Positions 58,420 through 64,000 of a stretch of DNA of 64,000 bases are shown here, in pieces (positions within the stretch are counted from its first letter, which is position 1; each line of letters starts with the position of its first letter). The stretch covers positions 57,376 through 121,375 of the forward strand of contig NZ_JBKBXB010000003.1 of NCBI RefSeq assembly GCF_046313975.1, given 5' to 3'. The translations under genes were made by a program, and so were the position numbers. The DNA is from Hyphomonas sp. Lineage in GTDB: Bacteria > Pseudomonadota > Alphaproteobacteria > Caulobacterales > Hyphomonadaceae. Below the pieces are notes generated by a model that worked only from the letters and a program-made list of their open reading frames with translations, made no database searches and had not been told where the DNA came from.

Positions 58420-59097
58420 ATGCGCTGCCCGCTTGTCCGTCTTGCCGCCTGTCTGGCCCTTCTGGCCGCCTGTACGGCCGTGCCGCAACCGGGTGCAGTG
58501 CCTCCATCGGCTGCCAGACCGCCGGAGGCAGAAGCCGGCCTCGTGATCGACCGTCTGCCGGAGGATTTTCCGCATGGCGGCGAGCCGCGCCTGGCTGAAG
58601 AGATCGACCTGATCGTCATCCACACGATCGGCGGGCCCATGTGCCGGAACGGGGAAGTGTTCTTCACCCCGGCCAGCGGCAGCGCCGTGTTCTGGCGCGA
58701 CTGGTTTCTGGATCAGCCGGACAGGAGCATCCATTATGTCATCGGGCGGGCGGGCGACATCGCCCAGCAGCGCCCGGAGCTGCGCACCGCCGGCCATGTC
58801 AGCTTCGGGGGGGTGATGCAGCGCGTGAACCAGCGTTCTGTCGGCATCGAGCTGGTCAACCGCGGCGACGGGATCGAGCCGTTCCCGCCCGCGCAGATCG
58901 CCGCCACGAAGGCGCTCGCCGCTGTCCTCGCCGGCCGCTATGGCCTCGGGCCGGAGGCCGTGGTCACACATGCGGCGCTTGACACCCGGATGCAGGCCGA
59001 TTGCGGCGGCCAGCCGCTGCGGCGCAATCTGGATCCGGGCCCGCTGTTTCCGCTGGATGAGGTCCGCGCGGCGATGGCGCGCGAAGAGGCGCGCTAG
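58420..59097 (+). CDS. N-acetylmuramoyl-L-alanine amidase (Amidase_2) lipoprotein
   Basis: LIVIHT, SIHY, AGHV, SVGIEL, VTH; LAAC lipobox. Confidence 0.85.
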   Translation: MRCPLVRLAACLALLAACTAVPQPGAVPPSAARPPEAEAGLVIDRLPEDFPHGGEPRLAEEIDLIVIHTIGGPMCRNGEVFFTPASGSAVFWRDWFLDQPDRSIHYVIGRAGDIAQQRPELRTAGHVSFGGVMQRVNQRSVGIELVNRGDGIEPFPPAQIAATKALAAVLAGRYGLGPEAVVTHAALDTRMQADCGGQPLRRNLDPGPLFPLDEVRAAMAREEAR

Positions 59098-59996
59098 GAG
59101 GCGCGTGTGCGGGCCAGCGCCATCTGCCGCTGGCGCTCGGCAAAGCGGGCCCGCTGCCCATCCGTCATTTCGCTGATGCAGGCCGGGCAGGAGATGCCCT
59201 CCACATAATCCTTGTGCTGACGGCCTTCGGCTGAAACCGGCCGGCCGCAGGCATGGCACAGGCTATGCGTGCCCGGCGACAGGTCATGGCGCACGCTGAC
59301 GCGCTCGTCGAATACGAAGCATTCTCCGCGCCAGAGGCTTTCCTGCTCCGGCACGGTTTCCAGGTATTTCAGGATACCGCCTTCAAGGTGGAACACGTCC
59401 TCGATGCCTTCGGCCTTGACGAAGCTGGTCGCCTTCTCGCAGCGGATGCCCCCTGTGCAGAACATCGCGATCTTCGGCTTGCGGCCTTCGCTTTCGAGCC
59501 GGGCGCGGAACTCCCGGAACCAGGCCGGAAAGTCGCGGAAACGATCCGTCTGCGGATCGATAGCGCCTTCAAAGGTGCCGATGGCGACCTCGTAGTCGTT
59601 GCGCGTGTCGATCAGCACGGTGTCCGGATCGGTAATCAGCGCGTTCCAGTCTTCCGGCTTCACATAGCTGCCGACGAGCGTGTTCGGGTCAGTGCCGGGC
59701 ACACCCATGGTGACGATCTCGCGCTTCAGGCGCACCTTCAGCCGGCGGAAGGGCATTTTTTCGGCCTCGGCAAACTTCGCCTCCAGCGTCTCGGCGCCGG
59801 GCAGGGCGCGCAAGCGGGCAAGCGCTGCGTCAATCGCCTCGGGCGTGCCCGCGAGGGTGCCGTTGACGCCTTCCTCCGCCAGCAGCACGGAGCCTTTCAC
59901 GCCCAGCCCGCAGAACGCCGCTGCCAGCTCGGGCTGGCGCTCGCGATAGTCCGGAAAGCGGAAGAACTTGTAGAAGGCGGCGACGCGGAAACTCAT
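59094..59996 (-). CDS. trhO: Rhodanese-domain tRNA uridine(34) hydroxylase
   Basis: FYKF, EEGVNGT, IDTRNDYE, MFCTGGIRCEK, HLEGGILKY, CFVFDERV. Confidence 0.92.
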   Translation of the reverse strand: MSFRVAAFYKFFRFPDYRERQPELAAAFCGLGVKGSVLLAEEGVNGTLAGTPEAIDAALARLRALPGAETLEAKFAEAEKMPFRRLKVRLKREIVTMGVPGTDPNTLVGSYVKPEDWNALITDPDTVLIDTRNDYEVAIGTFEGAIDPQTDRFRDFPAWFREFRARLESEGRKPKIAMFCTGGIRCEKATSFVKAEGIEDVFHLEGGILKYLETVPEQESLWRGECFVFDERVSVRHDLSPGTHSLCHACGRPVSAEGRQHKDYVEGISCPACISEMTDGQRARFAERQRQMALARTRAS

Positions 59997-61446: not shown

Positions 61447-61752
61447 TCAGAACCGGTCAGGGCGCAGCACCCTGACCTCCGAGACATTCAGCACACCGAT
61501 ATGCGAGCCGAGCAGGGACTCAAGATGCCCGAGGGCTGCGTTGATGCGGGCTTCTGTGCCGATCGAGATGACCAGTAGCATGTTGCCGGAGGCGGAAAGG
61601 TCTGAATCCCGGTTCCAGTGATTGCCGCCGCCATAGCCGGCGATGGCGGGCAGAACTGTATACCCGGTGAGCCCGGCCGCTTCCAGGACGCTGCAGGCAC
61701 GTTGAAGCGCCATGCGCTCAATGATCAGTTCGAGACGGTAGCGGACATGCAT
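61447..61752 (-). CDS. sbtB: PII-like regulator, SbtB type
   Basis: LELIIE...L...GLTGYTV..A.AGYG; directly downstream of sbtA. Confidence 0.8.
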   Translation of the reverse strand: MHVRYRLELIIERMALQRACSVLEAAGLTGYTVLPAIAGYGGGNHWNRDSDLSASGNMLLVISIGTEARINAALGHLESLLGSHIGVLNVSEVRVLRPDRF

Positions 61753-61763
61753 GGATCACCTCC

Positions 61764-62750
61764 TCATCCCGCGACGAGACGGCCAAGCCAGATATAAAGG
61801 GGCAGGCCGATGATCAGGTTGAACGGGAACGTTATGCCGAGCGACAGTGTGAGATAAATAGATGGCCGTGCCTTGGGCAAGGCCAGGCGGATCGCGGCCG
61901 GAACGGCGATGTAGGAGGCCGAGGCGGCAAGCGTGATGAGCAGCGCCGCGTCCGCGGCAGGCATGCCGTTGGCCCAGGCCACCAGGGCAGCGAGCAAGGC
62001 CGACAGAAGCGGCATGTAGAGGCCAAACAGGATGGTGCCGGGTTCGAGCTGCCGCCAGCCATTGCTGAGGCCGCGGCCGGCCGCCAGGCCCATGTCGAGG
62101 AGAAACAGGCAGAGGATGCCCTGGAACGGGGTGACGAAGAAGGGGGCGATCCGCTCCATGCCGGCCTCGCCGGTGATCCAGCCGATGAGCAGGGAGCCGA
62201 TCAGGACAACGACGGAGGCATTCAGCAGCACTTCGCGCGCAAGCTCGCCGCGCTCAGCGGCGATCTGCGCAGCCGGTTGCGGGTGTCGGGCATTGCCGCC
62301 CCTCGCGAGGATAAGGGCGGTGATGATCGCCGGCACTTCCATCAGCGCTGCGACGGCGACGAGATACCCAGACGCGACAAGGCCCGAGGCGGTGACGGCC
62401 TGGGTCGCCGCCACGAAGGTGACGATCGAGATGGAGCCATAGTGCGCGGCCGCTGCCGCCGCATCGGTGCGGTCGAGCCGGGTGGTCAGGCGCAGAAGCG
62501 TGAAGGCGAGGACGGGCAGAAGGAAGGATAAACCCATTCCGGAGGCCATGATCAGGGCAATGTCCCAGCTGAGCTGGCTTTTCGACATCTCGACCCCGCC
62601 TTTCAGGCCGATCGACATCATCAGGTAGATCGCCAGGCCTTTGGCGAAGGCCTCCGGGATCGACATCTGCGATTTGAGCAGCGCTGCGCCGAGTCCCAAT
62701 ACGAAGAACAGGACCATCGGTGAGAACAGGGTGGAGAGGGCGATGTCCAT
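61764..62750 (-). CDS. sbtA: Sodium-dependent bicarbonate transporter
   Basis: IYLMMSIGLKGG, AAHYGSISIVTF, LFLLDMG, ASASYIAVPAA, LGITFPFN. Confidence 0.92.
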   Translation of the reverse strand: MDIALSTLFSPMVLFFVLGLGAALLKSQMSIPEAFAKGLAIYLMMSIGLKGGVEMSKSQLSWDIALIMASGMGLSFLLPVLAFTLLRLTTRLDRTDAAAAAAHYGSISIVTFVAATQAVTASGLVASGYLVAVAALMEVPAIITALILARGGNARHPQPAAQIAAERGELAREVLLNASVVVLIGSLLIGWITGEAGMERIAPFFVTPFQGILCLFLLDMGLAAGRGLSNGWRQLEPGTILFGLYMPLLSALLAALVAWANGMPAADAALLITLAASASYIAVPAAIRLALPKARPSIYLTLSLGITFPFNLIIGLPLYIWLGRLVAG

Positions 62751-62813
62751 GGCAGACCCCAAAGCCGGTGAGGCCCCGGACTGAGCCCCGGGGGCGCGAC
62801 ATGCGCCGCTTCA

Positions 62814-62836
62814 AAAAATAGGTCCAGACTATTTTT
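62814..62836. promoter_or_regulatory. LysR (CbbR/CcmR-type) palindrome
   Basis: AAAAATAG-gtccaga-CTATTTTT perfect 8-bp inverted repeat containing T-N11-A. Confidence 0.7.
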
Positions 62837-63072
62837 CCGATGAAATTCATAGAGAGAAACAATGATATTTGCTTCGAAACCCTCCGGGTCATGTGGCGGC
62901 CCGGCGCCTGGCAGTGGCCAAGCCTGCCGGACCCCTCACGATCCGCACGCCCCATTACTGACCCTGCCAAAGCTGGCCATAGCTGAATGCTATCAACCAG
63001 GAACAAAAAATGGATTGGAGCTATTCTTCTTCCAGCCCATCTGCAGCGGCATCAATCCTCAGGAGACTGATC

Positions 63073-63678
63073 ATGATGCGTACTCATTCGGCCCTTGCCG
63101 CCCTGTTTGCTGCCGCCCTTGCGGCCACTCCGGTGGCCTGTGCATCGACTTCCGCCCAGACCGCAGCCACGGCCGTTGCCGCCGCGCCCGCCGAAGTGCG
63201 CGCGCCCATAACCGAAGCTGACGTGATTGCCGCCCAGAATGCCTGGGGCAACGCACTGGTCAGCATTTCCCGCACCTATGACCAGCAGGGCATCGAGGCG
63301 GCCACCAAGCTCGCCGGCGAAGTGATCGACAGTGCCTACGGCTACCAGATGGGCCCGGTGCTGTTCAAACCCACGCTGACCGTTGCCCCGCAAACCTTCC
63401 GCACCACGCGGGAAGGCGCGCTGGCCTATTTCGTAGGCGGCAACCCCGATTATCCGAAAGACACAGGCTTCGCCCTGAATGGCTGGGAATCCTTCGAGAT
63501 CAAGAATGCCGGCATTTTCATTGAGGGTGACACGGCAATCTCGATGGGCAATGTGATGCTCACCAACAAGCAAGGAAACGTCACGACCGTCGACAAGACC
63601 TGGGGCTATCTGCGCGACAAGGACGGGGCACTTCGCATCGTGCTGCACCATTCCTCCTTGCCCTACACGCCTCAGTAA
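63073..63678 (+). CDS. Exported iota-class carbonic anhydrase (COG4337-like)
   Basis: AGGAG RBS, signal peptide; AQNAWG, PVLFKPT, GALAYFVGG, VDKTWGY, IVLHHSSLPY. Confidence 0.85.
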   Translation: MMRTHSALAALFAAALAATPVACASTSAQTAATAVAAAPAEVRAPITEADVIAAQNAWGNALVSISRTYDQQGIEAATKLAGEVIDSAYGYQMGPVLFKPTLTVAPQTFRTTREGALAYFVGGNPDYPKDTGFALNGWESFEIKNAGIFIEGDTAISMGNVMLTNKQGNVTTVDKTWGYLRDKDGALRIVLHHSSLPYTPQ

Positions 63679-63697
63679 ATCTCACCTCCCCCGGCAG

Positions 63698-63742
63698 CTG
63701 GCCGGAGTGCGGGTCGCCTGAAGCGACCTGCGCTCTGGCCAG
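63698..63742 (+). other. 20-bp RNA hairpin with three G-U pairs
   Basis: ctggccggagtgcgggtcgc-ctgaa-gcgacctgcgctctggccag. Confidence 0.7.
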
Positions 63743-63777
63743 CCGTTTGGTTTTGAAGATCCGTATACGTTCCGATC

Positions 63778-64000
63778 ATGTCATCTGCCATCCGTACATC
63801 ATCGCTCGCGCTGGCCTCCGCCGTCCTCATCACCTCTCACGCTGCAGCTCAGGGGACAGATGAGGGCTTCGAGTTCTGGCTCAACCCATCCCTGAGCCAC
63901 GACCTGACCGACAGGACAGGGGTGGAGCTGGAAACCGCCCAGCGCTGGCGCAGCGCGGAAGACGGCCGGGCAGACACATACTTCTATCGCCTCTGGCTAA
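63778..64000 (+). CDS. DUF2490-like outer-membrane protein (partial, runs off window)
   Basis: Manual translation: signal peptide then DEGFEFWLNPSLSHDL...VELETAQRWR...DTYFYRLWL. Confidence 0.7.
   Translation, partial: MSSAIRTSSLALASAVLITSHAAAQGTDEGFEFWLNPSLSHDLTDRTGVELETAQRWRSAEDGRADTYFYRLWL

Follow-up and report, generated by a model that had tools for sequence, protein, structure and literature searches.

Among the closest described systems for bicarbonate uptake is the cyanobacterial SbtA-SbtB pair (Synechocystis slr1512/slr1513; structures 7cye and 7egk), in which the gene of a PF05982-family permease of 374 amino acids (aa) is followed directly by that of a P-II-fold protein, in a RuBisCO and carboxysome context and with CcmR/CmpR as regulators. 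In the Synechocystis permease, F110-A112, A320 and S322 are the contact residues for Na+, and S114, Y140, S324 and S327 those for bicarbonate, the HCO3- site itself being a docking model (Liu et al.). Bicarbonate transport extends to distant members of the family: cyanobacterial SbtA2, with ~24% identity to SbtA1, transports bicarbonate in E. coli, and SbtA-family members of autotrophic Proteobacteria have also been reported to be active on it. Two further proteins serve as references, namely CPII, a P-II protein whose nucleotide binding is modulated by bicarbonate, and all2909 of Anabaena sp. PCC 7120 (PDB 7c5v/7c5w), a carbonic anhydrase (CA) of a single COG4337 domain in which mutation of T106, Y124, H197 and S199 abolished or reduced activity (Hirakawa et al. 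2021, PMC8132391). The present analysis concerns a 64-kb stretch of Hyphomonas DNA (bases 57376-121375 of contig C3 of genome G000, hereafter the window), at the end of which genes for an SbtA-family permease, a P-II-fold protein, a predicted CA and a DUF2490 barrel lie together and probably constitute a LysR-controlled inorganic-carbon acquisition cluster of a RuBisCO-less, puf-bearing marine Hyphomonas.

The general concept is not new. Conversion of CO2 to bicarbonate by a periplasmic CA, followed by import through a transporter, has already been stated in the review of Nocentini et al., and inorganic-carbon toolkits are known from heterotrophs as well (Scott and colleagues). Genome papers on marine photoheterotrophs, rhodopsin-bearing flavobacteria included, have assigned SbtA, BicA and CA to the supply of anaplerosis, and both the periplasmic-CA/importer model and light-stimulated anaplerotic bicarbonate uptake are covered in PMC8425729, PMC10880623 and PMC3595038 (citing Gonzalez et al. 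2008). The cluster would follow the published model in hydrating CO2 outside the inner membrane, importing bicarbonate and feeding carboxylases; it differs in that its genes are grouped at one locus, have a LysR box in common and count an outer-membrane barrel among them. Relative to this concept, the new elements are the barrel slot, the LysR regulon and the puf association. A preliminary description of the window had proposed a single pathway for anaplerosis or pH control through these genes, of which the core is supported by the present data, while the pathway concept proves to have been published and the barrel step is conjectural.

In the mechanism envisaged, the exported iota-class CA would hydrate periplasmic CO2 that has diffused in or leaked from respiration, and the SbtA-family permease would import the bicarbonate, the presumed substrate, probably by coupling to an ion gradient. 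The co-transcribed P-II-fold protein would gate the permease, CPII, which senses bicarbonate and adenine nucleotides, being the closer likeness than SbtB. An OxyR-like LysR protein without the redox cysteines may bind the ATAG-N7-CTAT boxes and, in response to a presumed effector, switch both divergent arms. The bicarbonate would feed phosphoenolpyruvate (PEP) carboxylase, crotonyl-CoA carboxylase/reductase (Ccr) and biotin carboxylases. The DUF2490 barrel, predicted to be 12-stranded and arginine-lined, would most likely serve as a passage for small anions or as a docking partner, and its role is the weakest link of the proposal.

Gene content of the cluster

The features of the cluster are given below. 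All coordinates are window positions; the 15 kb past the window end were read as locus L003 (window position = L003 position + 59624).

61447-61752, minus strand: P-II-fold regulator, SbtB/CPII-like, 101 aa (Pfam P-II 34.5 bits, cut-off 25; DUF190 30.6 bits)
61764-62762, minus strand: SbtA-family permease, 332 aa from a TTG start (PF05982, 363.5 bits, E 1.2e-108)
62763-63072, no strand: divergent spacer of 310 bp with two LysR-type boxes ATAG-N7-CTAT (motif search)
63073-63678, plus strand: predicted exported iota-class CA of the COG4337, metal-independent type, 201 aa (NF047901, E 8.2e-86; PDB 7c5v, E 2.8e-66)
63697-63743, plus strand: GC-rich hairpin with a 20-bp stem, then a U-rich tract (-52.8 kcal/mol, z -5.9)
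63778-64446 (the window stops at 64000), plus strand: DUF2490 outer-membrane barrel, predicted, 222 aa (PF10677, 103 bits, E 2e-29)
64456-65400, minus strand: convergent LysR regulator gene, downstream of DUF2490 and outside the window

The preliminary description had reported sbtA-sbtB divergent from an exported HHSS-motif protein and a barrel, and all four genes were found in place. The cluster extends beyond the window end with the remainder of the DUF2490 gene and the convergent LysR gene, which is an addition to these four.

The HHSS-motif protein, earlier proposed to be a COG4337 iota-class CA, keeps the four mutation-sensitive catalytic residues of such an enzyme. It aligns to all2909 (7c5v) without gaps over residues 44-199, and its T101, Y119, H192 and S194 match T106, Y124, H197 and S199 of the Anabaena enzyme at identical spacing; the HHSS motif is kept close to the C-terminal end (...LHHSSLPYTPQ). 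The two proteins also share the single COG4337 domain and the signal peptide, which has been predicted likewise for bacterial COG4337 proteins (Hirakawa et al., PMC8132391). Between the possible starts at 63010 and 63073, an AGGAG ribosome site and the alignment of homologues favour the ATG at 63073. The N-terminus from there is a Sec-type signal peptide ending PVAC-AS (PVAC/ACA), and a signal peptide is common to the homologues. The Cys of this peptide, which is lipobox-like, is conserved in alphaproteobacterial CA homologues and missing from others. The CA may thus be either lipid-anchored, which would set it apart from all2909, or cut by signal peptidase I, and lipid anchoring is possible rather than general since some homologues lack the Cys. 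NCBI records label several close homologues (P0007, P0010, P0011, P0079) 'phosphoribosyl-AMP cyclohydrolase', which is very likely an annotation error that has been propagated.

The permease matches PF05982 (TC 2.A.83) across profile positions 1-306 of 308. An alternative start is a probable ATG at 62750. The P-II gene begins 11 bp after the sbtA end on the same strand, so that a PF05982 permease directly followed by a P-II-fold gene is common to the window and to Synechocystis. In a weak alignment to 7cye the segments of the Na+ site appear to be kept, as do the counterparts of S114, A320, S322 and S324. Besides its shorter permease, the window differs from the cyanobacterial system in the absence of a RuBisCO or carboxysome context and in having an OxyR-like LysR gene instead of CcmR/CmpR.

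The P-II protein has its best solved relative in 5d4n (E 4.2e-6, full length), which, like related entries, represents CPII of Thiomonas intermedia, a P-II protein associated with the carboxysome. Cyanobacterial SbtB gives only a weak match (E 0.014-0.9). The C-terminal CGPxGC redox loop, a motif that occurs in some SbtB proteins only, is absent from the P-II protein of the window, which ends in ...VRVLRPDRF and has a single Cys elsewhere in its sequence. The protein seems to resemble CPII more than cyanobacterial SbtB, though at low sequence similarity and in a photoheterotroph without a carboxysome.

Conservation and linkage

Linkage was examined in 80 CA loci from one-per-species genomes (59 non-cyanobacterial and 21 cyanobacterial), with neighbours counted within 6 kb, and in a genus sample of 41 Hyphomonas genomes and an order sample of 201 genomes. 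A class-level sample was dropped for the linkage counts: a CA homologue occurred in merely 13 of its 301 genomes, and as these were too few, the order and genus samples were used.

Within Hyphomonas, SbtA is present in 20 genomes and the CA in 16, and every one of these 16 also carries SbtA. In 12 of the CA-positive genomes no more than 5.5 kb separates the two genes, the other four being fragmented assemblies. The co-occurrence of the genes, put forward in the preliminary description as a check on the proposed pathway, is thus observed for the CA and SbtA. At least three layouts were found in the genus (arrowheads give the strand; HK, histidine kinase; RR, response regulator):

Type 1 (window): sbtB< sbtA< / CA> DUF2490> LysR<
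Type 2: HK> RR> CA< barrelX> (TerC<) LysR> sbtA> sbtB>
Type 3: LysR> CA-paralogue> sbtA>

The constant core of these layouts is LysR, CA and SbtA, and the barrel varies. The data support treating the CA together with the SbtA/P-II pair as a single unit that is conserved and under common control. Of the four-gene pathway proposed earlier, this core is conserved and probably jointly regulated; the link of DUF2490 to it is partial and its slot interchangeable.

In the set of 80 CA loci, barrel genes are frequent beside the non-cyanobacterial CA. The neighbours in the 59 non-cyanobacterial loci include DUF2490 (19), OmpW (17), a barrel without family assignment that is here called barrel X (6), any barrel (29) and SbtA (13), whereas DUF2490, OmpW, barrel X and SbtA are all found in 0 of the 21 cyanobacterial loci, which distinguishes the setting of the window CA from that of all2909. 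In Sphingomonas, Erythrobacter and Pelagerythrobacter the order CA-OmpW-DUF2490-SbtA-SbtB is found on one strand, with a gap of 4-74 bp between DUF2490 and sbtA. The OmpW-family gene, encoding an 8-stranded barrel, lies directly downstream of the CA in its 17 loci, often with DUF2490 next (L012, L018, L026, L027, L029, L035, L046-L048, L060, L061, L070-L072, L079).

The commonest neighbour of the proteobacterial iota-class CA is a two-component system (HAMP kinase plus regulator), often accompanied by a second, NarL-type pair (loci L012-L086; examples at L026:4000-8000 and L056:6124-7818). Histidine kinase and response regulator genes occur near the CA in 42 and 43 of the 59 non-cyanobacterial loci and in 0 and 2 of the 21 cyanobacterial ones, respectively. 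The window locus has no two-component system and carries the LysR regulator instead.

Regulatory elements

The box ATAG-N7-CTAT, a T-N11-A LysR box, occurs at 62818-62832 and 62979-62993, both copies lying in the sbtA-CA spacer and none elsewhere in the window, where 0.06 would be expected. The CA-proximal copy is conserved in the Hyphomonas locus L007. In 1.3 Mb of fetched loci, 22 matches were obtained, all but one in loci with an orthologous LysR gene, where they are placed next to this gene or precede sbtA or the CA gene; the genus loci from later sampling repeat the pattern. Taken together, the box accompanies the orthologous genes in more than 15 related loci (L007, L011, L033, L038, L053, L068, L075, L115, L119, L121-L129).

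The best model for the LysR protein is OxyR and the second CynR, both under their cut-offs. An assignment as OxyR was rejected, the score being 198.8 bits against a cut-off of 329 and the redox cysteines (C199 and C208 in E. coli OxyR) being absent: the single Cys of the protein lies within LYICAAPED, and the 'GHCL' of OxyR is replaced by 'GHKL'.

At the 5' end of the LysR gene (L003:5769-5820, window ~65393-65444), one-mismatch boxes and a sigma-70-like promoter were noted, and in related loci exact boxes occupy this position. The one-mismatch boxes would fit autoregulation.

The hairpin that follows the CA gene resembles a terminator or an attenuator. Its counterpart between CA and DUF2490 in L007 (8497-8548, z -4.0) is conserved in position and structure and differs in stem sequence.

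Metabolic context of the host

No match to the RuBisCO large subunit (PF00016) was found in the host genome, which is 92% complete, and DabA was likewise not found in it. A PRK-family match was rejected as phosphoribulokinase, being a 246-aa frame apparently of uridine-kinase type with no accompanying RuBisCO. The host carries pufL and pufM (contig C8:47509-49173, locus L120; 347 and 320 bits), Ccr (641 bits) and a PEP carboxylase-like frame. With pufLM present and RuBisCO not found, the host is a photoheterotroph of the aerobic anoxygenic phototroph type. The preliminary description had assumed a probable heterotroph, with a search for cbbLS as a check and an autotroph with an ordinary carbon-concentrating mechanism as the contrary case; the genome-wide search for the large subunit bears out the want of RuBisCO, and the puf genes replace the plain heterotroph with a photoheterotroph.

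In the genus sample, puf genes occur in 13 genomes, and the CA in 10 of these 13 as compared with 6 of the 28 others (10 / 3 / 6 / 22; odds ratio 12, from related genomes that are not independent). The association of puf with the CA in Hyphomonas is offered as a lead only. Anaplerotic and ethylmalonyl-CoA carboxylations contribute to marine CO2 fixation both in the dark and in the light, and the cluster, with its regulator, box and two promoters, provides a genetic handle on the bicarbonate supply of RuBisCO-less photoheterotrophs.

The outer-membrane barrel

The DUF2490 protein carries a signal peptide and ends in Phe (...IDYSF), and its PF10677 score of 103 bits compares with a cut-off of 29.8. 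The AlphaFold2 model (mean pLDDT 92.8) has ~12 strands, and its nearest solved folds are NanC (TM 0.67), PcoB (0.63) and KdgM (0.58/0.66), the intimin beta-domain and the barrel enzyme LpxR also being among the matches. Lumen residues were deduced from strand alternation alone, by which 16 of the 22 basic residues, against 11 acidic ones, face inward. The runs R90/R92/R94/R98 and R109/R111/R113 sit on neighbouring strands, and R92, R94, E96, R98, R109 and R111 are invariant. Barrel size and fold and, in the model, basic residues on adjacent strands of the lumen are thus shared with NanC, KdgM and PcoB, whereas identity is 7-13%, evidence of homology is limited to the barrel superfamily, and the lumen of DUF2490 may be closed by salt bridges. 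TCDB lists the family (TC 1.B.81) as a putative porin, its function not established, and no paper pairing DUF2490 with a CA or SbtA was found in the literature searched.

Linkage to the CA is a property of part of the family. The order sample holds a CA homologue in 40 genomes and DUF2490 in 29, the two being adjacent in 4. The view of DUF2490 as a generally CA-linked family was rejected on this count. Elsewhere the neighbours of DUF2490 are mixed (SLT, ParE/GyrB, histidine kinase, UPF0126, deacetylase, cell-wall hydrolase). In the DUF2490 tree, CA-linked genes fall into at least three well-separated clades, the window clade (12 rows) being CA-linked throughout, in a comparison biased by the sampling of the CA-linked rows via the CA; CA-linked DUF2490 occurs with two CA subfamilies. 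Such scattered clades would fit either recruitment on several occasions or an old association that was lost in places. The case in which DUF2490 is unlinked elsewhere, named in the preliminary description as contrary to its proposal, thus does not apply, DUF2490 being CA-linked in the 19 non-cyanobacterial loci given above; the recurrent linkage and the prediction of an outer-membrane barrel stand, while most of the family lies away from any CA.

Where DUF2490 is absent, the CA may be adjoined by barrel X (L033:2727-3467, L023, L038, L053, L075, L115, L116, L123-L127), an exported protein of ~245 aa ending in ...GREF and predicted to have 12 strands (pLDDT 75). No Pfam or NCBIfam family matches it above threshold; there is a weak match to the Pfam family Phenol_MetA_deg. 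It was rejected as a divergent DUF2490 (hhalign probability 1.2%). The slot occupied by DUF2490 in the window can thus be filled in other loci by OmpW or by a 12-stranded barrel of another family.

A second DUF2490 paralogue of the host (contig C22:49806-50354, minus strand; loci L087, L114) lies directly after the gene of a DASS-family Na+:anion symporter (PF00939), and the pair is conserved in 7 Hyphomonas genomes.

Alternative explanations

Several findings weigh against the proposed carbon-acquisition role, at the level of the core and of the barrel. The permease is only remotely related to Synechocystis SbtA (7cye; 70 bits, E 1.8e-18), and of the four residues in contact with docked bicarbonate two are changed in the weak alignment, the equivalents of Y140 and S327 being Ala. 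The CA scores 286.6 bits against NF047901 ('metal-independent carbonic anhydrase') and so misses the equivalog cut-off of 350 bits, a point of difference from all2909; since the genus, order and class samples contain no genome that attains this cut-off, the cut-off looks narrow, rather than the CA divergent. One beta-CA, which is cytoplasmic, is present in the host genome, and the cluster is therefore not the sole route to bicarbonate. As to the barrel, bicarbonate should cross general porins and CO2 needs no channel; only 4 of the 29 DUF2490-bearing genomes of the order sample have an adjacent CA; and the CA gene and DUF2490 have the terminator-like hairpin between them, so that expression of the barrel may be lower or separate. 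An independent preprint of 2026 describes a buried network of two Arg, two Glu and a Tyr in 238 DUF2490 models, and the lumen could be closed because this charge network is reported as buried.

The alternative that survives best accepts the inorganic-carbon role of the CA-SbtA-P-II-LysR core and sees in DUF2490 a closed, salt-bridged barrel with another role, for instance to anchor or partner a (lipo)protein CA at the outer membrane, to act there as an enzyme, or simply to accompany the island as an envelope protein. The buried network, the unrelated neighbours of most DUF2490 genes in the order sample and the hairpin all favour it, and LpxR among the fold matches would suit an enzyme. A linkage found in at least three clades and in several gene orders argues against mere hitch-hiking, and in Sphingomonadales DUF2490 abuts sbtA, which likewise speaks against this alternative. 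The non-homologous OmpW and barrel X in the same slot fit generic docking as well as they fit a channel. Docking of a lipoprotein is further suggested by the lipobox-like Cys conserved in alphaproteobacterial CA homologues; against this, many DUF2490-linked CA homologues lack the Cys, for example that of Sphingomonas sp. BE123. The nearest folds, moreover, are substrate-specific 12-stranded porins, and the gene of the paralogue follows that of a Na+:anion symporter. A closed barrel with another role is, on this evidence, a serious though less probable reading. If the barrel were irrelevant, the cluster would be an unsurprising case of the already proposed arrangement of a periplasmic CA and a bicarbonate importer.

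A channel role for DUF2490 would have wider consequences. DUF2490 and analogous 12-stranded barrels could be dedicated outer-membrane channels for small anions, each matched to one particular Na+:anion symporter of the inner membrane, which for the CA-linked clade would mean bicarbonate and SbtA and for the paralogue a DASS-type substrate; this extension is speculative and rather unlikely. If it were true, DUF2490 would be the first outer-membrane bicarbonate channel and would complete an envelope-spanning carbon uptake in non-autotrophs, and in Hyphomonas the channel system would be preferentially deployed by bacteriochlorophyll-based photoheterotrophs. DUF2490 is a widespread outer-membrane family, and its recurrent, independently arisen linkage to CA and SbtA gives it a concrete functional hypothesis.

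A second alternative to the carbon-acquisition role assigns the cluster to pH or ion homeostasis rather than to carbon supply, through periplasmic CO2/bicarbonate buffering and Na+-coupled bicarbonate movement, by which the pH of periplasm and cytoplasm would be kept steady in alkaline seawater. Such a function has been proposed for periplasmic alpha-CAs and bacterial COG4337 proteins (PMC8132391). It would agree with the more frequent occurrence of the CA beside histidine kinases and response regulators (42-43 of 59 loci) than beside SbtA (13 of 59), and with the TerC and Na+/Ca2+ exchanger genes of some CA loci. The CA, however, never occurs without SbtA within the Hyphomonas sample, the nearest solved relative of the P-II protein has bicarbonate-tuned nucleotide binding, and the greater frequency of the CA in puf-bearing Hyphomonas is a better fit to carbon demand. 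Homeostasis as the main function appears improbable.

That the permease carries some other small anion and the NTF2-fold protein is no CA, the likeness to carbon uptake being nominal, is highly improbable, for although similarity to characterised SbtA is low, the Y140 and S327 equivalents are changed, the CA falls under the equivalog cut-off and the public names of close homologues are inconsistent (several being the cyclohydrolase label noted above), the CA aligns without gaps to an assayed enzyme with all catalytic residues kept, and the distant SbtA2 and the SbtA-family members of autotrophic Proteobacteria are active on bicarbonate.

Neighbouring features of the window

Upstream of the cluster lie the gene of an exported Amidase_2/AmpD-like protein (58420-59097, plus strand) and that of TrhO, the tRNA U34 hydroxylase of rhodanese type (59094-59996, minus strand). 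The region at 54.5-58 kb of the window contains short open reading frames, with the GC content dipping to 0.60.

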